A stretch of DNA of 64,000 nucleotides from a virus (IMGVR_UViG_3300031576_000034:4367-68366); one strand, 5' to 3'. Numbered from the stretch's first letter, positions 12,911 to 58,121 are shown. Translations and numbers: made by a program. The notes: generated from the letters alone by a model not told the origin.

Positions 12911-12990
12911 CCGAAGCCGACTCCTCCGAAGCCGACTCCTCCGAAGCCGACTCCTCCGAAGCCGACTCCTCCGAAGCCGACTCCTCCGAA
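12911..12990. repeat. tandem array of 5 exact 15-bp units CCGAAGCCGACTCCT plus a partial unit
   Basis: seen directly; no spacers. Confidence 0.95.
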
Positions 12991-13026
12991 GGGGGCCCAG
13001 AGCACGCCGGAATCGACCACCCAAGG
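12987..13026 (+). repeat. dispersed ~41-bp element, copy 1
   Basis: CGAAGGGGGCCCAGAGCACGCCGGAATCGACCACCCAAGG. Confidence 0.9.
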
Positions 13027-13050
13027 CAGCCAGTGCTCAAGCCTTGAATA

Positions 13051-13130
13051 CTTCCGCACGCAACCGCACGCAACCGCACGCAACCGCACGCTTCCGCACG
13101 CTTCCGCACACTATCGCACACTTCCGCACA
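13051..13130. repeat. eight 10-bp units with CGCAC(G/A) core
   Basis: cttccgcacg, caaccgcacg x3, cttccgcacg, cttccgcaca, ctatcgcaca, cttccgcaca. Confidence 0.9.
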
Positions 13131-13586
13131 CCGCCCTACATTGCGAACCTTTTCGGGTAGTTGTAGGCGTAAGTGGTGCGTCCGGTCCCGTCCTCGACTG
13201 TTGGTAGTGATCCCACGCTGCTCGAGCGTCGCTACCTACCAGCCCACCCCGACCCCTCCCGGCTCGGGCTCGGCGCGTTCCTAGACGCCCGCCTGACAGC
13301 TCGCGGCGCACAGCGGCGGGAAAGCTCGCTTGCCTCCCGCTCGGGCCTGAGGGCTGGCGCGAGGGGGCTGCGACGCGGCGCGCGCGGCCTACGGGCGTGC
13401 GGGCGCCTTCGGGAGGGGGCCGGTGGGGGCGGGGCCGGCGCACGCTGCCATAGTCTGTGACTATCGAAACAGGCATAGCCAAGCACTATTGCTAACTGGA
13501 AAATGATAGACTCCGGCTACGACGGGGGCCGAAAACCCCTTGACGCGAACCCACAGTTACCTACCTTCGCCCACACTCGGAGCCCC

Positions 13587-13961
13587 GTGACCGCCATCGT
13601 CCGCAGCCGATTCGCCCGCATCCTCGCCTGGTTGGCGCGGATCGTCTTCTTCTGGCGCGAGGAGCCGCGATGCGGCAACTGTCGGTACTTCGATCGCGCG
13701 GCCTTCGTCGCAACGGTCTCACCGATTTTCGCGCAGGCGATGGCGGTCATCTCGCCCGATCAGCTTTTGAACCAGAAGCGCGGCAGGCGTGATCCCGAGA
13801 CGATGGCCGTGCTCGACGACACGCCCGACGATGTGTCCCTTGCGCTCAAGGGGCGCATGCACACCTGGGATCGCTACGGCGCGTGCGGGATGAAGAACGC
13901 GGGCGTCTTCGAGGGTTTCCTCTGCGAGCAGTACCGCAGGGGGCGGAACAGCACGGAATGA
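13587..13961 (+). CDS. Cys-motif hypothetical protein
   Basis: CGNCRYF..GAC..FLCEQY; GGAG RBS; TTGACG upstream near 13540. Confidence 0.7.
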   Translation: MTAIVRSRFARILAWLARIVFFWREEPRCGNCRYFDRAAFVATVSPIFAQAMAVISPDQLLNQKRGRRDPETMAVLDDTPDDVSLALKGRMHTWDRYGACGMKNAGVFEGFLCEQYRRGRNSTE

Positions 13962-14362
13962 CCGACGAGAAGAAATACGACGCCGAGTATTTCGATCGGC
14001 GTATGAACGATCCGGACGAGATTGCGAAGATCCCCGATCTCACGGCTCCGAACGTCGGGACGATCCCACTCGTGAGGAAGGCGTCGGCGAACGAACTCAA
14101 GATCTTCGCCGATCAAGGGCAGCGCCTCTGTCTGACGTGCAGCAACTTCAAGCACCGCGAGGGCCAGGAGTCGATGCGCAGGCAGAAGTTCGTCGCGCGG
14201 CTCGTCCACGAGTTGTGGGGCAAGCGCGCGACCGAGTACCTCACCGACGCCCCGCAGAACATGGGGCTCTGCGCTGCGCGGAGCACGCCGCGCGATGAGG
14301 TGCTCGTCGGGCCGAGCACGCCGGCCTGCCCTTCGTACAAGAAGAACCCCTTTCAGCGATGA
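13958..14362 (+). CDS. Cys-motif hypothetical protein, same Cys pattern as the upstream gene
   Basis: CLTCSNF..GLC..ACPSY; ATGA overlap. Confidence 0.75.
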   Translation: MTDEKKYDAEYFDRRMNDPDEIAKIPDLTAPNVGTIPLVRKASANELKIFADQGQRLCLTCSNFKHREGQESMRRQKFVARLVHELWGKRATEYLTDAPQNMGLCAARSTPRDEVLVGPSTPACPSYKKNPFQR

Positions 14363-14703
14363 CGATGATGACTCACCTCCTCTGGGCCGCCTCCCTCGTC
14401 GTCGTCGTTTACGGCGTGACGACCTCGCCGCTCCTCTCCGTCCCCCGCATGTATCTTTCGCTCGTTCATCCGCTCTTCGAGGGCTTCGTCTACTGCGCGG
14501 TGTGCGTCGGCTTCTGGGCGGCCATCGTCCTCGAACTCATGCTTCGACCGTTCGACAGTTTTCTGGAAGCAGCCGTCTTCGGAGCGGCAGGCACCCACAT
14601 TCTGACGGCAGCACTCCCGCGGTTTTTGCCGAGCGCTCACGAGATAGAAGGCCCGATCATCGACGAACTTCGAGAAGTTCGCAGAAAGCTCAAGGAGAAC
14701 TAG
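14359..14703 (+). CDS. membrane protein with CxxCxGFW motif (DUF1360-like)
   Basis: three hydrophobic segments; CAVCVGFW. Confidence 0.7.
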   Translation: MTMMTHLLWAASLVVVVYGVTTSPLLSVPRMYLSLVHPLFEGFVYCAVCVGFWAAIVLELMLRPFDSFLEAAVFGAAGTHILTAALPRFLPSAHEIEGPIIDELREVRRKLKEN

Positions 14704-31508: not shown

Positions 31509-31702
31509 CCGAACACGAGTTCACCACCGAGCACGTCTTCATGTGCCCCTTCTGCATGCTCGAGGTCCACATCGTTCGCGACGAGACGAACGAACCCGCG
31601 CTCATCCACGGGATGCCGCCGTGCAAGCGGTATCTCAACCTTGACGTGGTGGACTACATGCAGGCGGTCAACAGGGAGAAGGCCAAAACGGCGCCGTCGT
31701 GA
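31505..31702 (+). CDS. small Cys/His hypothetical protein
   Basis: CPFC..HGMPPC; 4-nt overlaps. Confidence 0.65.
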   Translation: MTEHEFTTEHVFMCPFCMLEVHIVRDETNEPALIHGMPPCKRYLNLDVVDYMQAVNREKAKTAPS

Positions 31703-33190: not shown

Positions 33191-33212
33191 TCGGAATCGA
33201 CCACCCAAGGAG
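33172..33212 (+). repeat. dispersed ~41-bp element copy
   Basis: CGAAGGGGGCCCGAAGTAGTCGGAATCGACCACCCAAGGAG. Confidence 0.9.
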
Positions 33213-36776: not shown

Positions 36777-36851
36777 GGAAATGGATTCGGACTGGTTCGA
36801 GCTGCTCGTGATCAGCTTGTGCGTCGTGATGGCGCTGCCGTGGTTGCAGTG

Positions 36852-37807: not shown

Positions 37808-37826
37808 TGTACCGAGACGGGTTCTG

Positions 37827-38779: not shown

Positions 38780-38860
38780 TGGCGAAGGTCACGAAGCTGT
38801 GAAGAAGCTTGACATGCGCCGCGAAGTCCTTCGCGCCCTCAAGTGCGCGAGGAAAAAGTG

Positions 38861-39094
38861 ATGAACCGCAAGGTGCGTAATCTCATCTTAGGCGCTCTCG
38901 ACGATTCAGCGCAATCGGCTGAAGACCAGGCGGTGTACTACGACGACGTTCCAGGCCGGACTCGGCCGCAACACAACAAAGCGCGAGCGGCTGACCACAG
39001 ACGACGCGCAAAACGCCTGCTTGAAGCGCGCTACGAGTTCATCCTGTTGTACCAAGACACGTATCGGGACACGCGTCGGGGGAAGAAGCGATGA
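38861..39094 (+). CDS. small basic hypothetical protein
   Basis: GAGG RBS; TTGACA near 38809; ATGA overlap downstream. Confidence 0.55.
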   Translation: MNRKVRNLILGALDDSAQSAEDQAVYYDDVPGRTRPQHNKARAADHRRRAKRLLEARYEFILLYQDTYRDTRRGKKR

Positions 39095-40182
39095 CACTTC
39101 TCTCCGCCGATCAAATCGCACGCCTGCACGCCTGCGACACCCCCCTCGACTCCTGGCCGCTCCGTTCGGTCCTGCCGCCCAAGGAACGCATCCTCCACAT
39201 CCACCTCGACACCGACGACGACCCTCAGTACGGGATGCAGCGCGCGCTCAACCTCTGGGGCAGTGACGTGAGCCGGATCGCGTGGACGCGCGTCGGTGCC
39301 GAAGCGACGCGCAGACAGGCCGTCGAGGTCTGCCGACAGCAACAGCCGACGCTCGTCTGGATGCAGCTCCAGACCCCCGACGTTCTTGATGCTTCCACGC
39401 TTCGGCAGATGAGGGAAGCAGCCCCCAACGCGTTGCTCGTGACGTGGTGCGGCGACGTGGGCCGATGCGACCCGAACGAAGTGCTTCCGTGGGAGGCCGA
39501 GGTAGCTGACAACGTCCACCTCTGCCTCTTCTCATCGACGACGCAGGCTCACGCCTACCGCGCGCACGGTCACCCCGGCGCGTCCTATCTTCAGATCGGC
39601 TGCGACACGCAGTGGTTCCGGCCTGCGAACGCCACGAAAAAGTACCGCGTCGCGTTCCTCGGGCAGAACTACGGAACCAACTTCGATCGCACGTTGCCGG
39701 GTAACGACGCTGCGCTCCGCGCGGAGGTCGCGCGCGCACTGAAGCGGCGGCTCGGCCGAGATTTCTACCTCGCTGGCGGTGGATGGGGCGGCCTCGAGGA
39801 TGCGTTCGTCGCAACGCGCGACTCGCCTGCCGTCTACCACCAGTCCAAGCTCGCGCTTTCGATCTCCCTTTCGCAGATTCTTGGTCGCTACTCGTCAGAT
39901 CGGCTTCTTCGTGCGCTAGGGTGCGGCGTCCCGACGTTCGTCCGCGAGTTCTCCGGCATGGCCTCTTGGGGACTCGTGGATCGCGACAACTGCATCATCT
40001 GGCGGACGGAGATGTCTGTTGGGCACGTCGTGGAACTGATCGCGCAGGATTGGAGCGCTGAGATCGGCGAACGCGGCGCGAAACTGGTGGTACAGCATCA
40101 CACCTGGGAAGTCCGCGTGCGCGAGCTTGCCGTCTACCTTGCCGCGCTGCGCGGAGCCGAGATCACGACGGAGACGTTGTGA
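39091..40182 (+). CDS. GT-B glycosyltransferase (CgeB/Glyco_trans_1_2-like)
   Basis: VAFLGQNY, SDRLLRALGCG, IGERG..HHTWEVRV. Confidence 0.8.
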   Translation: MTLLSADQIARLHACDTPLDSWPLRSVLPPKERILHIHLDTDDDPQYGMQRALNLWGSDVSRIAWTRVGAEATRRQAVEVCRQQQPTLVWMQLQTPDVLDASTLRQMREAAPNALLVTWCGDVGRCDPNEVLPWEAEVADNVHLCLFSSTTQAHAYRAHGHPGASYLQIGCDTQWFRPANATKKYRVAFLGQNYGTNFDRTLPGNDAALRAEVARALKRRLGRDFYLAGGGWGGLEDAFVATRDSPAVYHQSKLALSISLSQILGRYSSDRLLRALGCGVPTFVREFSGMASWGLVDRDNCIIWRTEMSVGHVVELIAQDWSAEIGERGAKLVVQHHTWEVRVRELAVYLAALRGAEITTETL

Positions 40183-40952
40183 AGGTTGGGGCCTACTACG
40201 CCCTGCACTACGGCGCGGAGTACCTCGCGTGGTCGCTGAGATCGATCGCCGAGCAGGTCGATCACATCGTCGTTCTCTACAGCTCGCAACCGACGTACGG
40301 AACCGCGTCGCCCGTCGCGTGCCCGGAACCAGAGGAGCAGCTTCGACGCGAAACAACGCGCTTCGTCGACCCAGCTCGCGTCGAATGGATCCGCGGCCAC
40401 TGGCACGGCGAAGGTTCGCACCGCGACGCAGGCCTTCAGATCCTCCGTACACTCGGTTGTGAGATCGCCGTTCCCGTCGACTCCGACGAGTTTTGGATGC
40501 CCGACGCAGTCCGCGCTGCGGCCGAGCACGCTTACCAGATGAACTCTGCGTACGCGTGGCTGTGTCACTTCGAGCATTTCTGGCGAACGTTCAACAGGAC
40601 GGTGCACGACAGCTTCAGGCCGATCCGTGTTGTCGACCTGCGGCAGCCCATCGGAACGCAAGCATACATGCCGCTTGAGGCTCAACTCGCGCCCGTCTAC
40701 CACACGAGCTGCGCTCAAGCTGAGCGGATCACGCGCTACAAGTGGACTTGCCACGGTCACCAGTCAGAGCTTCGCGCGAACTGGCTCGAGGAGAAGTTCT
40801 TCGCGTGGACGTCGGAGAACGACCTGCCAGATCTCCACCCGGTCGTCTTCAACTTGTGGGACCGAGCGCGCGAAGCAAGCGAGACGACGCTCGCCGCTGT
40901 AGACACGCTCCTGCACGATCACCCGTACTACGGAAAGCCGCTCATCCGGTGA
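40179..40952 (+). CDS. GT-A glycosyltransferase-like protein
   Basis: EYLAWSLRSI..VDHIVV, VDSDEFW (DxD). Confidence 0.75.
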   Translation: MKVGAYYALHYGAEYLAWSLRSIAEQVDHIVVLYSSQPTYGTASPVACPEPEEQLRRETTRFVDPARVEWIRGHWHGEGSHRDAGLQILRTLGCEIAVPVDSDEFWMPDAVRAAAEHAYQMNSAYAWLCHFEHFWRTFNRTVHDSFRPIRVVDLRQPIGTQAYMPLEAQLAPVYHTSCAQAERITRYKWTCHGHQSELRANWLEEKFFAWTSENDLPDLHPVVFNLWDRAREASETTLAAVDTLLHDHPYYGKPLIR

Positions 40953-41746
40953 CGGTCGTCTTCGCGCGTACGCGGCACCGGTACGACTCGTACTGGCACT
41001 TCTGGAGGCTCGTCGAGCTGTCCGGCTACGAGACGTGCTTCCTCGACGAGGCGGATCTCGACGACCCAAGCAAGTGTTTCATCACGACACCGCTCAACGG
41101 CGAGATCGCCGCGTGGCAGCGCGAACGTCGTGCAAAGACGATCTGGTGGTGTCTCGAGCAGTACGATCCGGTTGGCGGCGGAGCGTCACTCTCCGCGCGC
41201 CTCGCCACCGTCATCCCAGGCACGTTCAACCGTATCTGGGGCTCGGACGAGTTCTTCTGCAAGAAGGATCCGCGCATCGAGTTCGTTCGGCTAGGCTCCA
41301 GCACGCAGCTCAACACGACGGGCCGCCTCGCGTGCGACGACATGTCCAACCGCTTCGATGCGATGCCGCTCGCGTACTTGTGGGGCCGTCGCGCGGAGTT
41401 CGTCGAGGCCCTCGTTCGGCACGGCGTCAAGATCGCTCCACCCTCGTACACCGAACCGGAACGCTCCGACTTGCTCGTGTCGAGCCGCTGGGTCCTCAAC
41501 CTTCAGCAGTACCCCGAGCCGTTCATCGCGCCGCTCCGGCCCGCCATCGCTGCGGCCTTCGGATGCGGGGTGATCTCCGAGCCGCTCGGCGTGCCGTACC
41601 CACACATCGTCGAGACAGGTGATCCGGCTCAGATGGCCGCGCTCGTCCGCGACGCGAGCCTCCTCTCTCGACGGTACGCCACCGGTCTGCGGCAACTCCT
41701 TTGCATCGACAACACGTTCCGCTCGTTCGTAGACGGTGCCGTATGA
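40949..41746 (+). CDS. putative GT-B glycosyltransferase
   Basis: SRWVLNLQQ..PLR..AAFGCGVISE; operon context. Confidence 0.6.
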   Translation: MTVVFARTRHRYDSYWHFWRLVELSGYETCFLDEADLDDPSKCFITTPLNGEIAAWQRERRAKTIWWCLEQYDPVGGGASLSARLATVIPGTFNRIWGSDEFFCKKDPRIEFVRLGSSTQLNTTGRLACDDMSNRFDAMPLAYLWGRRAEFVEALVRHGVKIAPPSYTEPERSDLLVSSRWVLNLQQYPEPFIAPLRPAIAAAFGCGVISEPLGVPYPHIVETGDPAQMAALVRDASLLSRRYATGLRQLLCIDNTFRSFVDGAV

Positions 41747-42684
41747 CGCTGCACCCTCGCGCCAACATCCACGTCGTTCACGTGATGCCGGACCACGGTC
41801 CGTTCGCGAGCAACTACACGCACTACGTTGCCGCAGCGCGCAGACTGCCGTGGCTCAGCGTCGTGCACCCGGACACACTCGATTTGTGGTGGCCGACCAT
41901 CCAGGCCGATCCGCACGTGCTCGTCGTCCTCTGGTCGGAACGAGCAGTTCCGCTGCGGGCCGATCGCCAGTGCCGCATCGTCGAGGTCTACGCTGAGGCG
42001 TTCGGGCCTTTCTGGCTGTCTGCGCACGCGGCGCACCTCGACCGAGCGCTAGCGCGCAGCACGGAACTGGATGCCTTCGTCGTGCACACTCCGCGCGTTG
42101 CAAAGCACCTCATCGCTGCGTTCGGGCTCCAGTCTGTTGTCATGCCGGTGGGTTGGGTGCCGGACTTTCGACGAGTTCCGCCGGGCGCTAGGACTCGCAA
42201 GGACGTGCTCTACTTCGGAAGCGCGACCGGCAAGCGTCTGTGGTCCGCTCCAGCGCTCTTCGAGCGCTGCGCCTCCCTGCGGGACGCTTCTGGCGCGTTC
42301 GGCGATGAGCTGGAGGTCCGGCTCTACGACGCGCTTGCCGCCGTCACGCTCCACCACTCAGATGTGTGGACGACCTCGACGTGGCGCCTTTGGCAGATCG
42401 CTGGCACAGGGGCGGCGGCGATCTTCGAGGCCGGGACCGAACTTGACGCGAGCGGCACCGCTCGAGAATCCGCGCCGGATCTTTGGCCGCTCTCCGGCTC
42501 AGGTGACTACTTCGTGCTTCCCCGGGTCACCGAAGCGAACGTGAGCCTTGTCGCGCGTGAGCTTGATCGGCTCGTCGCCGATCCAACCAAGCTCGCGGAG
42601 TCCGCCACACACATGACTGAGGAGCTTCGCGCGTGGCCGATCGAACGCTGCCACGAGGCGCTCCTTGAAAGGTTCGGCCGATGA
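41743..42684 (+). CDS. putative GT-B glycosyltransferase
   Basis: KDVLYFGSATGKR, GAFGDEL, WRLWQ..FE; operon context. Confidence 0.6.
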   Translation: MTLHPRANIHVVHVMPDHGPFASNYTHYVAAARRLPWLSVVHPDTLDLWWPTIQADPHVLVVLWSERAVPLRADRQCRIVEVYAEAFGPFWLSAHAAHLDRALARSTELDAFVVHTPRVAKHLIAAFGLQSVVMPVGWVPDFRRVPPGARTRKDVLYFGSATGKRLWSAPALFERCASLRDASGAFGDELEVRLYDALAAVTLHHSDVWTTSTWRLWQIAGTGAAAIFEAGTELDASGTARESAPDLWPLSGSGDYFVLPRVTEANVSLVARELDRLVADPTKLAESATHMTEELRAWPIERCHEALLERFGR

Positions 42685-43847
42685 TCCCGCTCTTCAAGGT
42701 CTTCACCGCTCCGACGGCTGCCGAACGCGTCGCCGAAGTTCTCGCGTCTGGCTACACGGCGCAGGGGCCCGTCGTCGAGATGTTCGAGACGATGCTCAAG
42801 GACTACCTCGGAGAGCAGAGTTTGCTCACGGTGTCGTCGGGGACGGCTGCACTCGATCTCGCGTGCCATCTGGCAGGCGTTGGGCCAGGGACGGAGGTGA
42901 TCTCGACCCCGCAAACATGCTCTGCGACGAACGGAGTCATTGCGAACCGCGGTGCGAAGATCATCTGGGCCGACATCGACCCGCTCACCGGCAACATCGA
43001 TCCCGCATCGGTCGCAAAGCTTGTCAACGAGAAGACCGTCGCCGTGATGGCCGTCGATTGGTCCGGTCGCCTCTGCGGCTACAAAGCGATCCGGGAAGCC
43101 CTGCGCGGTGACATTTGGATCATCCGCGACGCCGCACACGGCTTCGGGACCGTCGACAAGAACGCCGACTTCACATGCTGGTCGTTTCAGGCGATCAAGC
43201 ACCTCTCGACAGGGGATGGTGGCCTTCTTCTCGTACCGCCGAGTCAGTACGAACGCGCGCGGAAGCTCCGCTGGTTCGGCCTCGATCGCACCAAGGGCGA
43301 GTCCTTCCGTTGCGCGCAGGACATCGAGGAAGTCGGCTACAAGTACCACATGAACGATGTGGCGGCGGCGATCGGCTGCGCGAACTTCACCGCCGGCTTC
43401 GCGAAGTGGGTGGAGGTGGACGGCAGCACGTTCCAAGCACGCTACGGAGAGATCGACATCCTCGGGCGGCATCGTGAGAACGCACGCCTCCTCCTCGACG
43501 GCCTCACCCGCATCCAAGATGCCGTCAGCTACGACTTCGCGAACGCTCCGCCGTTCGACCCGACCTCGGCGTACTGGGTCCTCACGATCCTCGTTCCGCA
43601 CGAACGCGACGAGCTTCAAGCGTTCCTCGCCTCGCGCGGCATCGGCTCAAGTCGAGTCCACCGTTGCAACGACGAACACACGGCCTTCAAGCGCGTCTCT
43701 GAATGGCGCGTGCCGCACCCGGGTCTTGACGCTTTCGATGCTGCCCAGCTTTCGATCCCGTGCGGCTGGTGGGTCGGCGAGCACGAGCGGAACACGATCT
43801 TGATGGCGCTGTTCGACTTCGCAGAGCAGCAGAAGCGCGGCGCATGA
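42681..43847 (+). CDS. DegT/DnrJ/EryC1/StrS sugar aminotransferase
   Basis: SSGTAAL, DAAHGFG, SFQAIKHLSTGDGG (PLP Lys), GYKYHMND. Confidence 0.92.
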   Translation: MIPLFKVFTAPTAAERVAEVLASGYTAQGPVVEMFETMLKDYLGEQSLLTVSSGTAALDLACHLAGVGPGTEVISTPQTCSATNGVIANRGAKIIWADIDPLTGNIDPASVAKLVNEKTVAVMAVDWSGRLCGYKAIREALRGDIWIIRDAAHGFGTVDKNADFTCWSFQAIKHLSTGDGGLLLVPPSQYERARKLRWFGLDRTKGESFRCAQDIEEVGYKYHMNDVAAAIGCANFTAGFAKWVEVDGSTFQARYGEIDILGRHRENARLLLDGLTRIQDAVSYDFANAPPFDPTSAYWVLTILVPHERDELQAFLASRGIGSSRVHRCNDEHTAFKRVSEWRVPHPGLDAFDAAQLSIPCGWWVGEHERNTILMALFDFAEQQKRGA

Positions 43848-45832: not shown

Positions 45833-46439
45833 TCATGGGTACATGTAGCCGTCGTTGCGCGTCCCGGTGCAGACGACAAGTCGGTAGCCGCGCTCGCGCG
45901 CTTGTACCGTCCACGCCCTTCTCCGGCCGTCCCACGTGTCCGGGTTCTCCTCGCACGGCCGCAGCGTCTCCTCACCGCTCACGAGGCGCCAGCAGAACGC
46001 TCGGACTCGGGCCCACGCTCGTGCGTCCCACCGCTGTCGACGCGGCCAGCCAGCCCGCAGGCTCCTCGTCGTTCCAGCCCAGATTGCGCGACCAGAAGCA
46101 GTTGTTGCGGTGGTCGCACGGCCGGATGCCGAGGACGCGCGCAGAGTGCCGTTCGAGCCACACGCGACGTTCGTCGGTGATCGCTCGCTGGTTTTCGACG
46201 ATCTGAAAGATCATCGCGCAGTCCGCGAGCGAATCGAATCCGCTCTCGTTGACGCATACTTTCGCGAGTGCAAGCGCGAGTTCGCGCCGAGACGATCGGT
46301 GTACCGCGTTCACGGTGTGGACTTCGTGCGCGCTTGCACGCGGGCCCTGCGCGTGCACCTCGCTCGCGCACCACCCGATCGCGAACAACGCGACGAAAAG
46401 TGCAACGATCTTGATGATTCGCAAATACGTTTGGTTCAT
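45833..46439 (-). pseudogene. signal-anchored putative cell-wall hydrolase split by a frameshift near 46040
   Basis: N-terminal TM, LAKVCVNES; reading continues in a shifted frame as WARVRAFCWRLVSG..PC..WDG..CTGTRN to a stop at 45833. Confidence 0.55.
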
Positions 46440-46544
46440 GGGTCGTCCTCTGTACTCGCCGACGCGGGGTTACGTCAAGGTCCCGTCGGAATGTACTTGA
46501 CGGCGCGATTCGTTCGGGAGTACGAAACAGGTTGTGTTGTTGGG

Positions 46545-46582
46545 CTCCTTGGGTGGTCGGTTCCGGCTGCTCTGGGCCCCCT
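46545..46582 (-). repeat. dispersed ~41-bp element copy
   Basis: reverse complement AGGGGGCCCAGAGCAGCCGGAACCGACCACCCAAGGAG. Confidence 0.9.
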
Positions 46583-46688
46583 AATTCTGCGCCGTCCTGA
46601 GCGGCGCTGGGTGCGAGGATCTGATGGACGGCAAGGCACGCATCCGCCCCTCCCGGGGCGCGCAAACTGTGGAATTCTTGGAGGAGTT

Positions 46689-46934
46689 GTGACGCCGCGC
46701 GACATCGTCTGCCTCCGCAAGCGTCTTGGCTTCAACCAGCCGCGCCTTGCGCGATTCATCGAGATCAACCAAGTGACGATTTGCCGCTGGGAGACCGGGC
46801 ACAGCAAGCCAGCGGGCCTGTCGCTCGTCGTCCTGCGCGCTCTCCACGAGGCCGTCTCGACGGACGCGGGTCTGCGGCGGATCCTCAAGTTCCGCGATCT
46901 CGCGGAGCTGATCGAGGCTGCGGGGTTGCTGTGA
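46689..46934 (+). CDS. XRE-family HTH regulator
   Basis: LRKRLGFNQPRLARFIEINQVTICRWETGHSKP; GGAGGAG RBS. Confidence 0.85.
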   Translation: MTPRDIVCLRKRLGFNQPRLARFIEINQVTICRWETGHSKPAGLSLVVLRALHEAVSTDAGLRRILKFRDLAELIEAAGLL

Positions 46935-47197
46935 CGTTCGACCTGCGAGGCCTCTGCGACCAGCCGGGCTGCGTGCTCTGTGAAGCGCGTGTGGAGGCAG
47001 AGTGGGGCATCGCGCGGGTTGAGCGGGAGGCAGGGCGAAGGGCGGCGGAGCAACGAAGGGGCCGCGATGTGAATATCGCGGTGGTGGTCGCAGTGTCGGT
47101 GATCGTGGCCGTCACGTGTGGGGCGGCGTGGTGTTCGGCCAACGAAGGGGGCCCAGAGCAGTTGGAACCGGCCATCCAAGGAGTCGAACATGGCTGA
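46931..47197 (+). CDS. small membrane protein
   Basis: IAVVVAVSVIVAVTCG TM; C-terminus encoded by the dispersed element. Confidence 0.6.
   Translation: MTFDLRGLCDQPGCVLCEARVEAEWGIARVEREAGRRAAEQRRGRDVNIAVVVAVSVIVAVTCGAAWCSANEGGPEQLEPAIQGVEHG
47143..47183 (+). repeat. dispersed ~41-bp element copy supplying the RBS of the next gene
   Basis: CGAAGGGGGCCCAGAGCAGTTGGAACCGGCCATCCAAGGAG, ATG at 47190. Confidence 0.88.
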
Positions 47198-47369
47198 CAC
47201 GAAAGTCGACATCGCGAGGCTCCGAGAACTTCGCGCTTTCGCAGGCGGCTCCTCGGGTTCGCTCAAGGAGCGTGAAGCAGCGTTGCACGAGATCCGCCGT
47301 GCTTTGCCGGCCGTTCTGGACGAGTTGGAACAGCTTCGCACACAGGTAGAGAAGGCTGCACGACCGTGA
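47190..47369 (+). CDS. small helical hypothetical protein
   Basis: AAGGAG RBS; LPAVLDELEQLR. Confidence 0.65.
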   Translation: MADTKVDIARLRELRAFAGGSSGSLKEREAALHEIRRALPAVLDELEQLRTQVEKAARP

Positions 47370-48291: not shown

Positions 48292-48829
48292 CCGCGCTCC
48301 CCACCACCCCCGCGACGTGCGGCGAGTGCGAGCACGTCATGCGAGGTCGTGCGCCGATCGACGACGCCTGCGGGCACACGTTGTCGAAGCGGATGCTGCT
48401 CGTGTCGCGCCTCTCGGTGCCGCACCCGCTCTGCCCCATCCGCCGCGCAGCGGCGCTCGCGGAGCGGGACGCGGAGATCGCGCGCGTGAAGCGGGAGCAC
48501 GGCGAAGAGATGGGACGGCTTCTCGCCGCCGCGCAGGGCACGATCGACGCCACGAAGGCGACCGCGACGCGCAACTTCGAGATCCTCATCGAAGGGCACG
48601 CTGCCGATCGCGACCACGCCTGCGCCCGCCTCGACGCCACGAGCGCATCGCCGCCGCCATCGCCCGCGCCGAGCAGGCCGAGTCGAAGGTCGCGGCACTG
48701 CGTGAGGCGGCGCGTGCCATCGTGCAGCGCGCTGACAGCGCACCGATGCCGATGCCGCCGAGCGTCGCGAAGAACTGGCGCGACGACTGCGCCGCTTTCA
48801 TCCAGCGCCTTGCGAGGGAAACGCCATGA
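48288..48829 (+). pseudogene. hypothetical coiled-coil gene with an apparent frameshift near 48640
   Basis: CGEC..HPLCP then coil; 3' part (ERIAAAIARAE..ARETP) is in another frame and ends at an ATGA overlap. Confidence 0.45.
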
Positions 48830-49260
48830 CCCCCGACGAGATCGCGCGCCTGCGGGCGCTGCTTGAGAGCATCGACGCGGCGGGCGCGTACACCGACCGC
48901 CTCGCGCGCGAACAGGTGGAGCGTGCTCGCGACGCGATCATCGCCGAGGTGCCCGCCCTACTCGACGCGCTCGAAGCGGCGACATCGGGCGAGGAGATCA
49001 AGAACAACGCGTTGCGTGAGTTGGAAGCGGTGCTGCTCCGACACGAGAACCGCATCGCCGAGGCGACGCGCGAGCGGGACGAGGCGCGGGCGGACGCCAA
49101 GTCTCTGCGCAGGACCGTTCAGCCTGCGGGTGTTGCGGCGCAGCTCGCGTATGACGCGGCAATCCTGCACGGCACCGCGCCGCAGTGGAAGAAGCCCGAA
49201 GGGAGTGGCACAAACGCAACCGATGACGCGGCGGTGCGTGCGGCGAAGGAGAAGCCGTGA
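48826..49260 (+). CDS. coiled-coil hypothetical protein
   Basis: 4-nt overlaps; ERDEARA. Confidence 0.65.
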   Translation: MTPDEIARLRALLESIDAAGAYTDRLAREQVERARDAIIAEVPALLDALEAATSGEEIKNNALRELEAVLLRHENRIAEATRERDEARADAKSLRRTVQPAGVAAQLAYDAAILHGTAPQWKKPEGSGTNATDDAAVRAAKEKP

Positions 49261-49445
49261 AGAGGGGCGAGAAGATCGATCCGTGGATGCGTGGTTACGC
49301 CGCCGCACTGGCGAACATCATCCGCACCAACGGCGAAACAGGCCTCGCGAAGATCGCGATGGACTCGGACAACCTCACATTTCAGGACTTCGTGAACGCT
49401 GGCGTCGAGCGGTACGACCTCGACGCGCTCAGGAAAGCACGATGA
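49257..49445 (+). CDS. hypothetical protein
   Basis: AAGGAG RBS; overlaps. Confidence 0.65.
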   Translation: MKRGEKIDPWMRGYAAALANIIRTNGETGLAKIAMDSDNLTFQDFVNAGVERYDLDALRKAR

Positions 49446-49935
49446 CCCCCGCTGACATCGAGCGCCTGCGGGCACGACTCGCCCATGAGCACGATGCATC
49501 GTGCTACCACACGAGCGCAGATCACTGCGCCGACCACCATCGGCACGACGAGCAGTGCACCCGCGCGCTCAGGTGCCGCCTGCCTGACGAGCGCATCTCA
49601 CGCGCGCAGGCGCTCGCGCTGCTCGACTCGGTGGAGCGCCTGACGCGCGAGCGCGACATGGCCACGCTGGCTCTTGCGTGGGCACGCGAGGCGTTGAGGA
49701 TGGGCGAGAACGACGGCGCTCCGGGTGACTACGCCCGCGCGGCGTTTCATCTCGTCGAGGGCAGCAATCGCGAGCGCGACGAGGCCGTGGCCCGCGAGGC
49801 GGCGCTGCGGGAGGCGGCGCAGTTGGTGGTTGATGCGCTCCGATTCGACCCGGACGGCACCGGCCCGACTCGGCAGACGCTGACCGACGCGCGCGCGCGA
49901 TACTCCGCGCCGCGCTCACGCGCGTGGGTGGGTGA
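49442..49935 (+). CDS. His-rich coiled-coil hypothetical protein; 3' end uncertain
   Basis: MTPADIERLRAR..HEHDASCYH..; frame stays open into later genes, so a frameshift is probable. Confidence 0.4.
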
Positions 49936-50174
49936 TGGCTCTCACGGACGGCACACGGACGACCGCGCGCTATCGCTGCTGCGAGCAGTGGGGTGGTGGG
50001 CGGGCGTGGCGGTGCATCAACGGCGGGCCATTGCGCCGAGGGGCTCGGTGGAAAGCGGGGCGAGATGCGACGCTGTACCCCGCGGGCTGTGTCCTCGTGG
50101 TCAAGACAACGACGATCATCGAAGAGGGCCGCGAGAAGGGGCGACAGAAGCGCGCGGCGAAGGAGGGGACGTGA
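49932..50174 (+). CDS. hypothetical protein
   Basis: ends RAAKEGT with an RBS for the next gene. Confidence 0.45.
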   Translation: MMALTDGTRTTARYRCCEQWGGGRAWRCINGGPLRRGARWKAGRDATLYPAGCVLVVKTTTIIEEGREKGRQKRAAKEGT

Positions 50175-50431
50175 CGACTGCCAAGGACCGACGCGAGCTG
50201 GTCGAGTCGAGCTTCGCCACTGTGCGGATCGAGTGCTCCTCGTGCGGCGGCGAAGCGGAGATAGACGTGGAGTTCGTGGTGCAGTCCCCGGGCGAACACC
50301 CATACGGGCACCGCTTCGATCTCCCGGAGGGGTGGACGATCAACGCACCCGAAGGCGCTCTTTGTGGCGTCGGACTCACGTGCGCGGAGTGCAACGGCAC
50401 GCCGAAGAAGCGGAAGAGGAACAAGCCGTGA
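50171..50431 (+). CDS. Zn-ribbon hypothetical protein
   Basis: CSSCG..PEGW..CAEC. Confidence 0.65.
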   Translation: MTTAKDRRELVESSFATVRIECSSCGGEAEIDVEFVVQSPGEHPYGHRFDLPEGWTINAPEGALCGVGLTCAECNGTPKKRKRNKP

Positions 50432-50715
50432 CACCGACACCGAGGAACTATTCGATCCACGGGCTGATCGGCCCGGCCGAGTCGCGCAAAGCCTGTCGCA
50501 AGTGTTTGCTCTGCGGGCACCGTAACCATTGTCACGCGATGATCAAAGTCGGCGTGCGTCACTACGTCCACGCGCGCTGTGCGATCGACAACGACCCGGC
50601 GATCATCGGCCGGATGCCGCACTGGATCCTCTCTCAGTTGCCGATCTCGGCGTTCGACGGGCAGGACAAGGCATTCCTGACCCGCGTGCTGCGCCTCGTG
50701 AGAGACACGCCGTGA
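50428..50715 (+). CDS. Zn-binding hypothetical protein
   Basis: CLLCG..HARC; overlaps. Confidence 0.6.
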   Translation: MTPTPRNYSIHGLIGPAESRKACRKCLLCGHRNHCHAMIKVGVRHYVHARCAIDNDPAIIGRMPHWILSQLPISAFDGQDKAFLTRVLRLVRDTP

Positions 50716-50960
50716 CCGACCAACACGCTCTCAATCGCGCCGTGGGTCTGGCGCGGTCGCCGGAAACTCGCAACGCCGCAGTGAAGGCTGCCCGTGCGCA
50801 CGGACGCGAGGTTGCGCGGCTGTTGCGGGTCTGGGCCGTGACGTTGCCGGTACTCAACTATCCTGCCCACCGCGAAGCTCGAAAGCTCGCTCAGCGCGCA
50901 CTTCGGATCGACGCGGAATACGCAGCGAAGCGGGGGCGCGCGGCGAAGGAGGGAACGTGA
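50712..50960 (+). CDS. basic hypothetical protein
   Basis: 4-nt overlaps; ends RAAKEGT. Confidence 0.55.
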   Translation: MTDQHALNRAVGLARSPETRNAAVKAARAHGREVARLLRVWAVTLPVLNYPAHREARKLAQRALRIDAEYAAKRGRAAKEGT

Positions 50961-51766
50961 CCGACATCGATCTGACAGGGTTGGAGGCAGCCGTGTACCG
51001 GGCGACAGCGGAGATAGATCGCTTGCGCGCCGAGCGCGATGCCGCCCTCGCTCGCGCTGAGGCCGCGGAGGCGCGCATCGCGGAGTTGCAGCAGGCGTGG
51101 CCGCACATGGTCGACCGGCACCGCGCGTTGGAAGGCGAGCGCGACGCAGCCACCGTTGCGTTCGCGGAGGCGACGCGAGCCACGGATGCACACGCGCGAG
51201 CCACGGATGCACACGGTTGCGCTCTGACGCCGGAACGCGAGGCCGATCTGCGCGCGGCGCTGACGACGAATAGCAACTGGGCGCCGACGTTCGTACGTGA
51301 GGTGTTCGCGGCACTCGACGCGGCTCGTGCACATGCCAGGCATGCTCGTGCAACGATGATCGAAGCCTGCAACTCCGGCGGCCTCGCGCTTCGTCGTGAG
51401 CGGGACAAGCACGCCGCTGCGCTCGCGGAGGTCGCACGGTGCGTGCGGGAGGAGCGATGGGCGTGGGAGCGGAAGGCGCGGGAACGGTCGGAGAGAGCGT
51501 GGCATGCAGCGCCGCGACGACGGCTACAGCCCCTCCGAGACGCCGTTCTCGCCGCCACCGACGCCGCCCTCGCCTCCGGCGCCGCTGCCGGGGCGCGCGT
51601 GATCGAGGCGGCGCAGGTGCAGGGGGCGCAGTGGGAGCAGCAGCGGGTGCTGGCTCGCTTGCACGGGGCCACGGTGCGACTCGCCGACGGCAGTCTTGGA
51701 GACGCCGACATCATGGGTTGGCCCGATCCGGCCGAGGTCGTCGCAGCGCGGAGGGGCAAGCCGTGA
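50957..51766 (+). CDS. Ala-rich coiled-coil hypothetical protein
   Basis: AAGGAGG RBS; internal 21-bp duplication at 51174-51215. Confidence 0.6.
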   Translation: MTDIDLTGLEAAVYRATAEIDRLRAERDAALARAEAAEARIAELQQAWPHMVDRHRALEGERDAATVAFAEATRATDAHARATDAHGCALTPEREADLRAALTTNSNWAPTFVREVFAALDAARAHARHARATMIEACNSGGLALRRERDKHAAALAEVARCVREERWAWERKARERSERAWHAAPRRRLQPLRDAVLAATDAALASGAAAGARVIEAAQVQGAQWEQQRVLARLHGATVRLADGSLGDADIMGWPDPAEVVAARRGKP

Positions 51767-52296
51767 CCGCCCCGCTCACCGACGAACGCCTCGCGGAGAT
51801 CGAGGAGATCCTCGACGGCGGCTCGATGTACGGTCGGGCGCGCCTGCACCTCGCAGCGGATAATCTGCTTGCCGAGATCCGCCGCCTTCGCGCGCAGGGC
51901 GCGATGGAGCGCGACGCTGTTCTCGACGAACTGCGCCACGTGAAGGAGCAGCGGGCCAGGCTGCGGGCCACGACGATGCCGACGGTAATCTGTCAACGCG
52001 CCTGGGGCGAAGAGGACGACTGGTGGGTGGTCGTCTACGAGAACGCGGGCCGGCTTGCCGGAGCATCGGTCGAGGGCACCGGCGCGGAGATGCGTGCGCT
52101 CGCGCAGGGCATCATCGAAGGCGATGGCTACCACGCGGTGCGGTGTGCCGTTCGCCGCGCACGCAACGGAAACTGGCAGGTCTGGTCGCCACGCAATCAC
52201 GCGAGCGACCGGCTGCCGGAGATCAGTCCGGCGCAAGCGCAGGGGCTTGCGGGGCAGATCCTCCGCGACGTGCCCGACGCGATGGAGGGGCCGTGA
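51763..52296 (+). CDS. hypothetical protein
   Basis: MTAPLTDERLAEIE..WQVWSPRN. Confidence 0.65.
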   Translation: MTAPLTDERLAEIEEILDGGSMYGRARLHLAADNLLAEIRRLRAQGAMERDAVLDELRHVKEQRARLRATTMPTVICQRAWGEEDDWWVVVYENAGRLAGASVEGTGAEMRALAQGIIEGDGYHAVRCAVRRARNGNWQVWSPRNHASDRLPEISPAQAQGLAGQILRDVPDAMEGP

Positions 52297-52583
52297 GCCG
52301 GCTGCGAGAGGTCGTGCGCGCGTCGGTTGTCGCGATCGACGCGGGCGGCCAGTCGACGGCGCGCGTGCACGCGGAGATCGTTCGTGCTGCGCTCGCGGAG
52401 CGAGGGCTCGGCGCAGACTGCCACGTGGTATCCCCTGGCAACCCGCGGATCCCACTGAACGACGAACAGATCCTGGAATGGTACGCCGGACAGCTCCTCG
52501 CGATCGTCGACGGCGGCACGTGGTTCGCGATGAACGCGTGGATCAACTGCGCCGAGAAGTTCGCAGGCATCACGCCTGCTTGA
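52293..52583 (+). CDS. hypothetical protein
   Basis: GGAGG RBS; overlap. Confidence 0.55.
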   Translation: MSRLREVVRASVVAIDAGGQSTARVHAEIVRAALAERGLGADCHVVSPGNPRIPLNDEQILEWYAGQLLAIVDGGTWFAMNAWINCAEKFAGITPA

Positions 52584-52715
52584 GATGCGCGCGGCGCGGT
52601 CGTGATTCTGACTCGACGCGATCTCGCCATCGTGGGACATGTGGACGCCGTGACCCCCTCTCACACGACCGCCCAAGGACAACTGGCTCGCTGTGCGGGT
52701 CCACAGGAGTGAACG

Positions 52716-53030: not shown

Positions 53031-53248
53031 TCGACCCCGTGACCGGCCTGCCGCAGATCTCCGGCTACGGCTCTGGCTACGGCCCTGGCTACGGCCCTGG
53101 TTACGGCTACGGCTCTGGCTACGGCTACGGCTCCGGCGACGGCGGCGGCTCCGGCAGCGGCTCCGGCTCCGGCTCCGGCGGCGGCTCCGGATCCGGCGAC
53201 GGCGACGGCTCCGGCTCCGGCGACGGCGACGGCTCCGGCTCCGCATGA
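53027..53248 (+). CDS. Gly-Ser/Tyr/Asp low-complexity repeat protein
   Basis: GYGSGYGPG..GSGDGDGSG; 4-nt overlaps on both sides. Confidence 0.65.
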   Translation: MIDPVTGLPQISGYGSGYGPGYGPGYGYGSGYGYGSGDGGGSGSGSGSGSGGGSGSGDGDGSGSGDGDGSGSA

Positions 53249-53547
53249 CCCACGCGCACACAACCGCGCAGGACTGCACCGTCACCGTCCGCCTCGTCGG
53301 CGCGAGCGCGGAGATCGTCGGCGAGAGCGTGGAGATCGTCGTGCAGCAGCCCTCGCTGCACCGCGCGTGGTGCGCCAGGCTGCATCCGGGCTGGCTGCCG
53401 ACGCGCCCGGACCCCGTCGAGCGGAAGTGCGACTGCGGCGCCGGGAGCGTGCGGACGTTCACCTGCTCGCAGGAAGATGCGGGCGCGATCGGGTCGATGC
53501 TCGTCTTTGCGGCACGCCCACGGCCGAGCGACGACGGGGGCGGGTGA
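53245..53547 (+). CDS. hypothetical protein
   Basis: HRAWC..CDCG; overlaps. Confidence 0.55.
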   Translation: MTHAHTTAQDCTVTVRLVGASAEIVGESVEIVVQQPSLHRAWCARLHPGWLPTRPDPVERKCDCGAGSVRTFTCSQEDAGAIGSMLVFAARPRPSDDGGG

Positions 53548-56002: not shown

Positions 56003-56033
56003 AGGTCCGCTTCTACCGCCGACGCCGACGCCG

Positions 56034-56702
56034 ATGACCGAGATCGTCGCGCCCGGCTTCCGCTATCGCCTCACACGCGCCGACGTGCTCTGGGCGGCGC
56101 GAGCTGTCGCCTACGAAACCTCCGACGCCGAGGAGCAGGCCGCAACGCTCTGGACGCTCACGCAGGCGTTCGTCGCCGGCACCGCGAGCGTCCCCGATCC
56201 GCGAAGCCGGTTCGGCACCTTCGCTGATTTCGTTCGAGCCTACGCGCAGCCTGTGAATCCCCTGTGGGATTCGCTCGACGACGACAAGTGCCGCCGGTTT
56301 CCCAACTCGTGCACACCGCGACAAATGGCGCGACGCACCGAGGCGCGGACTGCACGCTTCGACGACTTGGACGAGCTGGCGGAGTTCCGCGATGCCTCGA
56401 ACATCGAGGAAATCGTGACGTTGTGGGCCTCTGGCCTGCTTCCCAACCCTGTACCTGGCGCCGTGGAGTACGCGGCACCGAGCGTCTCCTCGTCGTTCCT
56501 CGCACGCATAGACGACGCGGAGATCGTCAGTCGACAAGACCAATGGTACATCGCGTTGCGACGCAATCGCGCTCAAGCAGAGCGCGTCGCGATGCGTCCT
56601 GGGCCGTATCCGTTCTCGCTTCTAGGCGGCGCGCTCCTCGCCACAACCATCGCCGGAGCGGTTGTCGGCGGAACGTATGTTGCGCTACGCTGGGCCCGAT
56701 GA
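56034..56702 (+). CDS. putative cell-wall hydrolase-like protein with C-terminal TM
   Basis: LWAARAVAYE resembles the SleB-type catalytic Glu helix; C-terminal hydrophobic anchor. Confidence 0.55.
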   Translation: MTEIVAPGFRYRLTRADVLWAARAVAYETSDAEEQAATLWTLTQAFVAGTASVPDPRSRFGTFADFVRAYAQPVNPLWDSLDDDKCRRFPNSCTPRQMARRTEARTARFDDLDELAEFRDASNIEEIVTLWASGLLPNPVPGAVEYAAPSVSSSFLARIDDAEIVSRQDQWYIALRRNRAQAERVAMRPGPYPFSLLGGALLATTIAGAVVGGTYVALRWAR

Positions 56703-56932
56703 AGCTCGACCGCACCGACTGGACCCACCTCGCCTTGCTAACTGCGGGGGCGACCGGGCTTAGCGTCGGTGCGCTGGCCGTGAGTGACGGAATCAGCCCG
56801 CCAGAGCACCCGCGGCCTGTCGAATTTTGGCTCAAAGCCGCTGGCATATTCGCTGCCAGCGCGGCTTTGAGCGTCGGATTGGCAATCGGTGCGGCGGCGG
56901 TAATCGTGAAGATCGAAGGGCTGGACTCGTGA
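56699..56932 (+). CDS. small two-TM membrane protein
   Basis: two hydrophobic helices; 4-nt overlaps. Confidence 0.7.
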   Translation: MKLDRTDWTHLALLTAGATGLSVGALAVSDGISPPEHPRPVEFWLKAAGIFAASAALSVGLAIGAAAVIVKIEGLDS

Positions 56933-57549
56933 GACTCGTACTCGTCGGCGACTCGCACATGGAAGAAGCCGGGCTCGCCCCCGGCCTCATCGACGGCCTG
57001 CGCGCCGCGGGTCTCGAGCCCGTCGCCATCCACGCGACGCGCGGTAAGGGCGTCCGCTGGTACCTCGACGAGGGCCGGCTCGACCGCATCCTCGAAGTCC
57101 ATCGGCCGACGGTGCTCGTCGTCGAACTGGGCGCAAACGATTCGGTGACCACGAGCGGCAGCGAGTACGAGCGTCGGCTCGGCGAGTTCGTCACCAAGGC
57201 GAAGGCCGCAGGCGCCTCGATCGTTTGGATCGGGCCGCCGCACGCCACGGACGCTGAAGTAGGACGCCGCCACGAGGCCGTGGCCAACGTCCAGTCGCTC
57301 TACTTCGACGGGCGCGGTGTGCCGTGGATCGATGCGCGGCCGATGACCGCGGACCTCCAGCACGCCCGGGACGGCGTGCACTTCATACGTACGAGCTACG
57401 ACGAATGGGCGCGCAGACTCGCGCCGGCCGTTGCCGCCGAAGTGAAGGCGCTCGAACGACGCGGCAAGGTGATGCCGATCGCTGTCGGGCTCGTCGCCGG
57501 GCTCATCATCGGCGGGACGGTCGGGGCGATCGTCGCGTTCTCGCGCTAG
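56929..57549 (+). CDS. SGNH/GDSL hydrolase with C-terminal TM anchor
   Basis: VGDSH, ELGAND, DGVH; ends IAVGLVAGLIIGGTVGAIVAFSR. Confidence 0.88.
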   Translation: MRLVLVGDSHMEEAGLAPGLIDGLRAAGLEPVAIHATRGKGVRWYLDEGRLDRILEVHRPTVLVVELGANDSVTTSGSEYERRLGEFVTKAKAAGASIVWIGPPHATDAEVGRRHEAVANVQSLYFDGRGVPWIDARPMTADLQHARDGVHFIRTSYDEWARRLAPAVAAEVKALERRGKVMPIAVGLVAGLIIGGTVGAIVAFSR

Positions 57550-57591
57550 GCGCGGCACTTCCGCTTTTGCGCTGCCGCTCGACGCGCGCGG

Positions 57592-57882
57592 TCATCGGAT
57601 GTCGTCCCCTTGCCCGGCTTCTTCCTCAAGCGCATCGTACCCGCCCGCCTCGGCCCACGTGTCGTGCTGCACCGTCTCTTCGTCGTTGAGATCGGAGCAC
57701 GCCTTGAAGCCGGGCCCGTCCTGCACGAGCGCGGACACGTCGGCGTCTTGGAGGCCGTGCCGAGCGTACGCGATGTCGCACGCCTCGGAGAGCAGCTCTT
57801 CCTCGGTTGAGTCGTTGGGTGCCGAGAGCCACGCCTCGGTGAGGCGTTGGACGTAGGCGGGGATGTCTTTCAAGGTCGTCAT
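57592..57882 (-). CDS. acidic hypothetical protein
   Basis: AAGGAG RBS supplied by the dispersed element; very acidic. Confidence 0.7.
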   Translation of the reverse strand: MTTLKDIPAYVQRLTEAWLSAPNDSTEEELLSEACDIAYARHGLQDADVSALVQDGPGFKACSDLNDEETVQHDTWAEAGGYDALEEEAGQGDDIR

Positions 57883-58121
57883 CGTCGGTCTCCTTGGGTA
57901 GTCGGTTCCGGGCTACTCTGGGCCCCCTTCGGAGGGCGAGTCCTCGCTGCGTCGTCCGGCCACACAACCAAATCCCACGGGTACGGCGACGCCGTCCCCC
58001 GCTCGCGTCTCTGTCGCCCCCGAGCCTCCTCCGTCAACCGGAACGCTTCTCGCGCTTCGTGTTCGGTCGCGAACGGCCCCGCCTGCGCGATGCCGCCGCC
58101 GGATGCGTACCAGGCGGTCAC
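57879..58121 (-). CDS. hypothetical protein
   Basis: WYASGGGIAQAGPFATEHEA; C-terminus encoded by the element. Confidence 0.6.
   Translation of the reverse strand: MTAWYASGGGIAQAGPFATEHEAREAFRLTEEARGRQRRERGTASPYPWDLVVWPDDAARTRPPKGAQSSPEPTTQGDRR
57890..57931 (-). repeat. dispersed ~41-bp element copy supplying an RBS
   Basis: reverse complement CGAAGGGGGCCCAGAGTAGCCCGGAACCGACTACCCAAGGAG. Confidence 0.9.

Follow-up and report, generated by a model that had tools for sequence, protein, structure and literature searches.

The 64,000-nucleotide stretch IMGVR_UViG_3300031576_000034:4367-68366, hereafter called the window, corresponds to bases 4367-68366 of a linear 68,366-bp IMG/VR record of an uncultured phage, which CheckV rates as 73% complete. 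The window carries a short DNA element of 41-43 nt that is dispersed, on both strands, to six unrelated places in the genome (Table 1). The phage has a GC content of 64-70%, and its genes include a replication and recombination set (an SNF2 helicase, an exonuclease, a DnaQ-like subunit, a Sak4-like annealase and a 1397-aa PolA-type polymerase), a nucleotide-sugar set at 31699-43847 (an epimerase/dehydratase, an RmlC-like cupin, a glycosyltransferase and a DegT-type aminotransferase), which may serve the modification of DNA or of surface glycans, and an endolysin with the Amidase_2 and PG_binding_1 domains.

Scanning the whole record with nhmmer, using a profile of the six copies, recovered all of them on both strands at the positions given in an earlier note on this DNA, with E-values ranging from 1.8e-13 to 2.5e-10, and revealed no seventh copy. 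The next match had E = 10 and lies near 52666, so that the 3' fragment which the note had also reported there is at chance level and unsupported. With up to three mismatches, the exact consensus proposed in the note recovers two of the six copies, against none expected from 100 shuffles, and the word GGGGGCCC occurs six times in the whole record, each time within a copy. Pairwise identity among the copies ranges from 32/43 to 41/46. A degenerate pattern made of the 22 invariant bases found no match in IMG/VR, the JGI metagenomes or 185,579 species genomes; half-patterns found 2 and 8 loci in IMG/VR, each of which matches only the half that was searched with and is thus attributable to chance; and blastn of copy 6 found no match in isolate phages or plasmids. 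As far as these collections reach, the element is apparently unique to one orphan, high-GC, uncultured phage, and the species genomes searched contain no host family of repetitive extragenic palindromes (REP) or of miniature inverted-repeat transposable elements (MITE) to which it could be assigned, a match that, according to the earlier note, would remove its novelty.

The element consists of a T-poor core of 33-34 nt bracketed by two AAGG words, the distal of which begins AAGGAG, and the element reaches ~48 bp when a CTCC flank, present in three of the six copies, is counted. There are only 1-3 T residues per copy over the 41-43 nt, and one in the majority consensus. Four of the six copies have AAGG at both ends, with a spacing of 33 or 34 nt; the exceptions are copy 4, with TAGG at its 5' end, and copy 2, with AAGA at its 3' end. 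Similarly, AAGGAG is present in four copies, while copy 1 ends in AAGGCAG, which makes an imperfect Shine-Dalgarno (SD) sequence, and copy 2, the most diverged of all, is marked by GGGGCCCC and AAGATG. Copy 4 is closest to the consensus, with two departures. Two sub-forms can be distinguished, as copies 1, 2 and 6 share an extra base before GGAA together with the 5' CTCC, and copies 3, 4 and 5 have neither. The element lacks palindromic symmetry; when its two ends are compared in inverted orientation over 12 nt, each copy matches at 6-7/12 positions at best. Substitutions are spread over its 41 columns as random decay predicts (24 invariant columns, P = 0.20; variance, P = 0.17).

The conservation is at the nucleotide level, as had been claimed: the translated copies use two different sense frames and one antisense frame between them, and two further copies are untranslated. 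The three peptides quoted in support of that claim were reproduced by translation. A conserved peptide motif is ruled out, since the reading frames differ between copies, and, judged by this absence of a common frame, the element appears to be under no coding constraint.

Table 1. Positions, strands and genetic contexts of the six copies of the element in the window
Copy	Position	Strand	Context
1	12987-13027	+	1.6-kb untranslated control region 12000-13586
2	32478-32520	-	antisense within RmlC-like gene 32409-32927 (+)
3	33172-33212	+	last 5-6 codons and TAG stop of gene 32924-33190
4	46545-46585	-	divergent untranslated region 46440-46688
5	47143-47183	+	read through by orphan membrane-protein gene 46931-47197 (88 aa), tail GPEQLEPAIQG
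6	57890-57931	-	read through by gene 57879-58160 (-), tail KGAQSSPEPTTQGDRR

The genes around the copies were delimited by means of codon log-odds, the profile for which was trained on 16 long genes, and were checked against the gene calls in a protein collection, where gene 57879-58160 is called on one Logan contig only. These independent calls agree with the earlier note as to which copies end genes and which supply an SD sequence. At the same-strand junctions the upstream open reading frame (ORF) reads through the element, and gains from it a disordered tail or a stop codon. At two of the junctions the element also presents its AAGGAG 6-7 nt before the downstream ATG, so that the proposal that it acts as the ribosome-binding site (RBS) of the next gene holds there: in copy 5 the word lies 6 nt before the ATG at 47190 (gene 47190-47369), and in copy 6 it lies 7 nt before the ATG at 57882 (gene 57592-57882, minus strand), where stop and start overlap in ATGA. 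Copy 3 leaves its AAGGAG unused, the next called gene starting at 33345, 132 nt further. The copies in untranslated regions leave an orphan SD sequence: the next plus-strand gene after copy 1 starts ~560 nt downstream, and copy 4, which lies between the minus-strand gene 45972-46439 and the plus-strand gene 46689-46934, has its AAGGAG 105 nt from the ATG of the former. The product of the latter gene (81 aa) gives a weak match to the helix-turn-helix (HTH) domains HTH_3/HTH_31, with E-values of 0.003-0.005, below the Pfam cut-off. When the 33 nt between the two AAGG words of copy 5 are deleted, the upstream gene remains in frame (...SANEGVEHG*) and a normal GAAGGAG-N6-ATG junction is left, which, together with the flanking AAGG words, suggests an insertion-like anatomy.

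The genes beside the copies are not paralogous to one another and the flanking DNA is unrelated too, which argues against paralogous gene duplication as the source of the copies. When nine neighbouring products were looked up exactly, seven were alone in their 90%-identity cluster, and the clusters of the remaining two add only a start-codon variant from the IMG record and P0151, a protein related to the product of the gene after copy 3 (see below).

Two of the proteins that carry the element have homologues with which its position can be compared. Copy 2 encodes residues 24-36 of the RmlC-like protein, LGRSIPGCSGAPL, for which 93 homologues were found at E <= 0.001, the nearest being 39% identical. 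In an alignment of the protein with 13 of the 93 homologues, the columns H58, K68, Y124 and D153 are invariant, which we take to be the catalytic His, Lys, Tyr and Asp of RmlC. At the stretch encoded by the element most of the 13 homologues differ in sequence, probably forming a short helix there, and two of them have an insert of their own. AlphaFold2, run on this alignment, gave a mean predicted local distance difference test score (pLDDT) of 89.8, with values below 50 at residues 25-27 and 31-36 only. The low pLDDT and the variable sequence of the homologues indicate that the only intragenic copy sits in a structurally tolerant loop, which the model predicts to be disordered, of a gene that looks functional. 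The protein ended by copy 3 (88 aa) belongs to a widespread family of small proteins with 418 matches at E <= 0.001. In an alignment with 19 of the listed matches, chosen as close in length, the conserved domain extends to about residue 77 of 88 and is followed by tails that vary, and it is only this tail to which the element contributes. The family shows the motif MSGGSxDYxY...HDIEWVDSGDxxPGDE, to which no known function is attached, and the copy 3 protein has no match in PHROGs.

We tentatively regard the element as a portable module of gene junctions and leaders, phage-specific and copied from place to place by recombination. It would have spread in this way rather than by a dedicated transposase, entering most likely through the AAGG(AG) microhomology that ordinary ribosome-binding sites offer, or by exchange between existing copies, and the Sak4-like annealase and the exonuclease of the phage could catalyse the copying. 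The absence of secondary structure would keep the SD sequence accessible, and the copies of ~40 bp might then provide homology for shuffling the small orphan genes that flank them, as has been proposed for another class of phage repeats, the PeSLs discussed below. Homogenisation of junction sequences in this phage is suggested by a second junction repeat, 26 nt in length, four copies of which lie on the plus strand (49236, 50150, 50936 and 52272) and are 77-100% identical to the reference copy. This repeat contains AAGGAGG and a GTGA start/stop overlap, and the ORFs around it (48500-52700) show no paralogy at E 1e-3.

Several observations weigh against this interpretation. Mobility is read from anatomy alone, in one genome; the corresponding deletion in copy 6 (34 nt) gives no sensible frame; copy 2 replaces a sequence of about its own length, so that it is not a clean insertion; and the test for random decay has little power with six copies. 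A start codon is served by only two of the six copies, the SD sequences of copies 1, 3 and 4 lying ~560, 132 and 105 nt away. The two main untranslated control regions harbour copies 1 and 4, which rank with the best conserved, and a regulatory site would fit this at least as well. Furthermore, five of the six copies are oriented with the downstream gene (at least five would be expected with a chance of 7/64), and a passive junction repeat leaves unexplained the two close pairs of copies in (-,+) orientation, for which random placement gives P ~0.0015 in a post hoc calculation.

The main rival is a phage-specific cis-regulatory DNA site, in which the SD sequence is merely the start of the leader. 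The site could be an unusual GC-rich promoter for the host RNA polymerase modified by a phage factor, or the asymmetric binding site of a phage regulator ahead of transcription units. We consider such a site somewhat less likely than the junction module, but it accounts better for the orientation bias and for the good conservation of copies 1 and 4. Copy 1 lies in the control region ahead of a long plus-strand operon, copy 4 in the divergent region beside the small gene with the weak HTH match, and copy 3 ahead of the endolysin block and of a membrane protein with two helices; a promoter has a footprint of ~41 bp, and the element varies in length by 1 nt in its middle, as in a spacer. Phage-specific promoters would also be as confined to one phage as the element is. 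The start-associated sequences (SAS), with their extended form (ESAS), of cluster K mycobacteriophages (PMC3203893) are likewise dispersed motifs of unknown function adjacent to start codons. However, hexamers of the sigma-70 type are absent in and beside the copies; a search for sigma-70-like promoters found no site around copies 2-6 and one unrelated site near copy 1, and no intrinsic-terminator-like site overlapped a copy. Nor does a conserved -10-like word follow GGAAY at the spacing of the extracytoplasmic function (ECF) type in the six copies, and the 68-kb record has no match to Sigma70_r2. The record was likewise without a match to the single-subunit RNA polymerase family, but the control of this search matched nowhere and the search is uninformative. 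In addition, a promoter at copy 2 would direct antisense transcription into the sugar genes, and the conservation is not focused on particular columns. ECF-type, sigma-54-type and CsrA-type readings of the sequence, judged by eye, are unsupported.

The close pairs lead to another possibility, that the copies act in twos, either bracketing a stretch of DNA that undergoes inversion or looping, or forming a long-range duplex of ~40 bp in the plus-strand mRNA that hides the SD sequence of the distal copy and serves as a substrate for RNase III. Copies 2 and 3 (32478-/33172+; pair A) are 694 bp apart from start to start, and copies 4 and 5 (46545-/47143+; pair B) 598 bp; in 200,000 random placements, two adjacent (-,+) pairs of less than 700 bp had P = 0.0015, and any two close pairs P = 0.032. 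The orientation alternates + - + - + - along the genome, for which the chance is 2/64. The complementarity of pair B extends past the core, to 45 nt at 87%, and the duplex of copies 4 and 5 reaches -91.0 kcal/mol on the plus-strand RNA versus -71.5 on the minus-strand RNA, because all four differences are compatible with G.U pairs on the former; in the minimum free energy fold of 46530-47200, the two ends are joined by 57 pairs. The duplex of copies 2 and 3 reaches -68.0 kcal/mol on the plus-strand RNA versus -64.2 on the minus-strand RNA, and pair A is certainly co-transcribed, because it lies within an array of genes on the same strand. Nevertheless, paired action is unlikely. Site-specific inversion, as in a shufflon, needs a recombinase as well as inverted sites, and here the inverted pairs are present but no serine or tyrosine recombinase was found in the 68 kb of a record that is 73% complete; the RmlC-like gene would be disrupted if pair A were inverted. 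The two members of a pair resemble each other no more than they resemble the other copies, the differences in pair A are split (3 favouring the plus-strand RNA, 2 the minus-strand RNA, and 1 transversion) and a 4/4 outcome as in pair B has a chance of only 1 in 16, and the statistics of the pairs are post hoc.

A more specific form of the same idea, that the pairs are switches bracketing cassettes of 0.6-0.7 kb, which are flipped by the recombination system of the phage or clamped by a 40-57-bp mRNA duplex that masks the distal RBS and is cut by RNase III, we hold to be slightly less likely again. The cassettes would be the body of the RmlC-like gene with an orphan gene in one pair, and the Cro-like HTH gene with a small membrane protein in the other; if such switches were real, one 41-base word would control both the modification of DNA or cell-surface sugars and an early regulatory switch. 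A composite transposon made from the inverted pairs was also considered and rejected, as the segments between the arms are without similarity to each other and one arm is part of the RmlC-like gene, which continues across it. No break in composition was seen at copies 4 and 5, the GC content rising only near 48.3 kb.

Quite improbable, in our judgement, is a non-autonomous transposon related to MITEs, REPs or the rickettsial palindromic elements (RPEs), mobilised by an enzyme from the host or from the unseen 27% of the phage genome, with AAGG as its target-site duplication. The boundaries are sharp and the flanks unrelated, AAGG is found at both ends in four of the six copies, and one copy lies in frame inside an enzyme gene that looks functional; MITEs are also present in some phages, 0.2% of screened viruses having them (PMC11602168). 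AAGG is the identical word in every copy, and so may belong to the element itself. However, MITEs are defined in the same source (PMC11602168) by terminal inverted repeats of at least 10-15 bp, a length of 50-800 bp in prokaryotes and a target-site duplication of 2-10 bp, and the element, at 41-43 bp and with a terminal inverted match of at best 6-7/12, falls short in both size and ends; the suggestion of a miniature mobile element in the MITE sense thus fails. The element resembles MITEs, REPs and REPINs in being small, non-coding, dispersed, sharp-ended and of a kind occasionally found in phages, but differs in lacking terminal inverted repeats, a hairpin, a partner transposase and any copy in the host genomes searched. 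REPs and REPINs are imperfect palindromes with a stable hairpin, in doublets of ~100 bp, whereas the copies of the element share no hairpin and its close pairs are several times further apart. In agreement with the earlier note, which saw no transposase, none of the transposase and recombinase domains looked for in the 68-kb record (Resolvase, Phage_integrase, Y1_Tnp, the DDE-type rve and the TNB domain of TnpB) was found, and the 22-base pattern, as said, has no match in the 185,579 species genomes, the JGI metagenomes or IMG/VR.

The reading of the element as a structured RNA with its own RBS (a ribozyme, a riboswitch-like leader or a protein-binding hairpin), which the earlier note had also offered, is close to refuted: a 5-6-bp hairpin of the CCUCC-GAA-GGGGG type can arise in copies 1 and 6 with the use of their 5' flank, but it is missing from copies 3, 4 and 5, no copy folds better than shuffled sequence (z-scores for copies 1-6 with 20-nt flanks of +0.60, +0.62, +1.13, +1.45, +0.21 and +0.50), the RNAalifold consensus has -3.79 kcal/mol with one compensatory pair of nine, Rfam gave no match at the gathering score in the whole window and none at E <= 1 around five of the six copies (copy 3 being outside the stretches searched), and ARAGORN found no tRNA or tmRNA. 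A clustered packaging site, finally, would seem unlikely for copies that are spread over 45 kb.

Several other sequence features lie close to the copies. Copy 1 follows directly after an array of 15-bp units (12896-12991; 5-6 units, four of them identical), whose unit contains the CTCCGAAG of the 5' edge of the element, and it ends 14 nt before an array of 10-bp units (13041-13139; ~9 units), the first of which are T-free and CA-rich; a T-free, CA-rich stretch also follows copy 4. In the same 1.6-kb untranslated region, 12135-12438 contains an inverted repeat of 41 nt whose arms are 93% complementary and 222 nt apart; it is built of words resembling GTGTCGCAA and GTGTCACA, flanks an AT-rich part at ~12330-12385, and has the appearance of an origin or of a master control region. 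The palindrome CGTCAAG-N16-CTTGACG (46475-46505), a candidate operator, separates copy 4 from the start codon of the minus-strand gene and is located beside the gene with the weak HTH match. The 11-mer CAACGAAGGGG at the 5' edge of copy 5 (47140-47150) recurs 89 nt upstream (47051-47061) in another reading frame, and this upstream occurrence may be due to chance or may be a remnant of the edge of another copy. Elsewhere in the genome, a direct repeat of 48 nt with 81% identity (62706-62753 and 63639-63686), ending GAGGAGGATGAGATGG, forms the SD-plus-start junction of two genes, and a coding stretch of 6-, 12- and 18-bp repeats at 53032-53259 gives a Gly-Tyr/Gly-Ser low-complexity region. The palindromic hexamers GAGCTC, CAGCTG and CCATGG are absent from the record, against 26, 12.9 and 7.5 expected under a maximal-order Markov model, which suggests restriction avoidance; GGGCCC is not avoided (28 observed versus 23.5 expected).

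As to relatives of the phage itself, neither megablast of 20 kb nor tblastn of a 620-aa ORF found a match, tblastn of the DNA polymerase gave at most 28% identity and thus no close isolate phage, and no loci related by their polymerase were found in IMG/VR or the metagenomes. Alignment of the endolysin led to one IMG/VR contig, at 50% identity, which is without synteny and without the element. A related phage does exist: P0151, from a 992-bp contig, has 86% identity with the product of 33345-33680, which is the gene that follows copy 3, and the endolysins P0097 and P0098 show 80% and 77% identity; all three are encoded on contigs of 1-3.4 kb. The best match of the DegT-like aminotransferase is 44% identical, and its matches are scattered over many phyla, so that they are uninformative on the host. 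Among sequencing runs, the DNA was found only in the contigs of its probable source, a cave metagenome, and no RNA dataset is listed. These contigs cover the stretch in one piece. The contig joints that were seen have sides of 20-26 nt and look like unrelated contigs; the only one at a copy, 47160->33192, is a cross-match to copy 1 of the same phage. No strand-switch joints were found at the copies in the cave-metagenome contigs, which are blind to minority forms.

Among known repeat systems, the conceptually nearest are the PeSL, the SAS/ESAS, the mycobacterial interspersed repetitive unit (MIRU) and, for copy 2, the RPE, although the element shares the full set of defining features of none of them. 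MIRUs, a description of which is ascribed to Supply et al. 1997, are reportedly intercistronic operon repeats of 40-100 bp that are oriented with the genes and overlap the stop and start codons of their neighbours; they are said to be bacterial, often tandem, and restricted to intergenic spacers. The element resembles them in its size, in its intercistronic position, in its orientation with the genes, in being read through and in the overlap with the stop and start codons of neighbours, but occurs singly at each site, on both strands, and in a phage. RPEs, a description of which is ascribed to Ogata et al. 2000, are said to be palindromes of 100-150 bp that occur in tens of copies in a bacterial genome, in frame within protein genes at surface-exposed, tolerant positions. 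Copy 2 would be comparable to these, being an in-frame repeat in a functional-looking protein gene, at a loop with pLDDT below 50, but the element is no palindrome and has a single intragenic copy among its six.

The PeSLs (promoter early stem-loops) of T4-type phages consist of a strong, early sigma-70-like promoter and a terminator stem-loop, number ~50 per genome, and have been called 'mobile regulatory cassettes', for which spread and the shuffling of genes through recombination of one copy with another have been proposed (Arbiol et al. 2010, PMC2839356). A PeSL is like the element a short repeat at the junctions of small orphan genes, running from the upstream stop codon to the SD sequence and start of the next gene, and PeSLs commonly contain a run of G and, after it, a run of C; the element differs in having no promoter consensus and no hairpin, and in its six copies, one of which is intragenic. 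SAS are 13 bp long and occur in 11-19 copies, nearly all 3-7 bp from a start and nearly all in one orientation (PMC3203893, PMC12699233). SAS/ESAS and the element are both specific to a phage lineage, asymmetric, endowed with AGGAG and placed a few bases ahead of the ATG of non-structural genes; the upstream stop is sometimes inside the repeat, reverse copies without a start occur occasionally, the function is unproven and RNA hairpins are unsupported in both. Unlike SAS, the element has 41 bp, lies 6-7 nt before a start in two of six copies, and is found in three plus and three minus orientations. The SAS consensus itself, with up to two mismatches, has one match in the window versus 1.06 expected.

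The element adds to the dispersed junction repeats of phage and bacterial genomes; its mechanism we infer from one genome with six copies and no host. Phages are known to have short dispersed junction repeats, SAS/ESAS and PeSL among them, but these are mostly unexplained, and they are a candidate route by which small orphan genes are gained, lost and expressed. What is unusual here is the combination: an RBS is built into the end of a repeat that has no promoter, hairpin or inverted ends, and that is tolerated as protein tails and as the loop of an enzyme. The value of the case is that of a well-described example and a testable hypothesis rather than of a discovery. If the element did spread through the microhomology of ribosome-binding sites, this would be a simple route by which the gene junctions of a phage become homogenised and then serve as handles for recombination.

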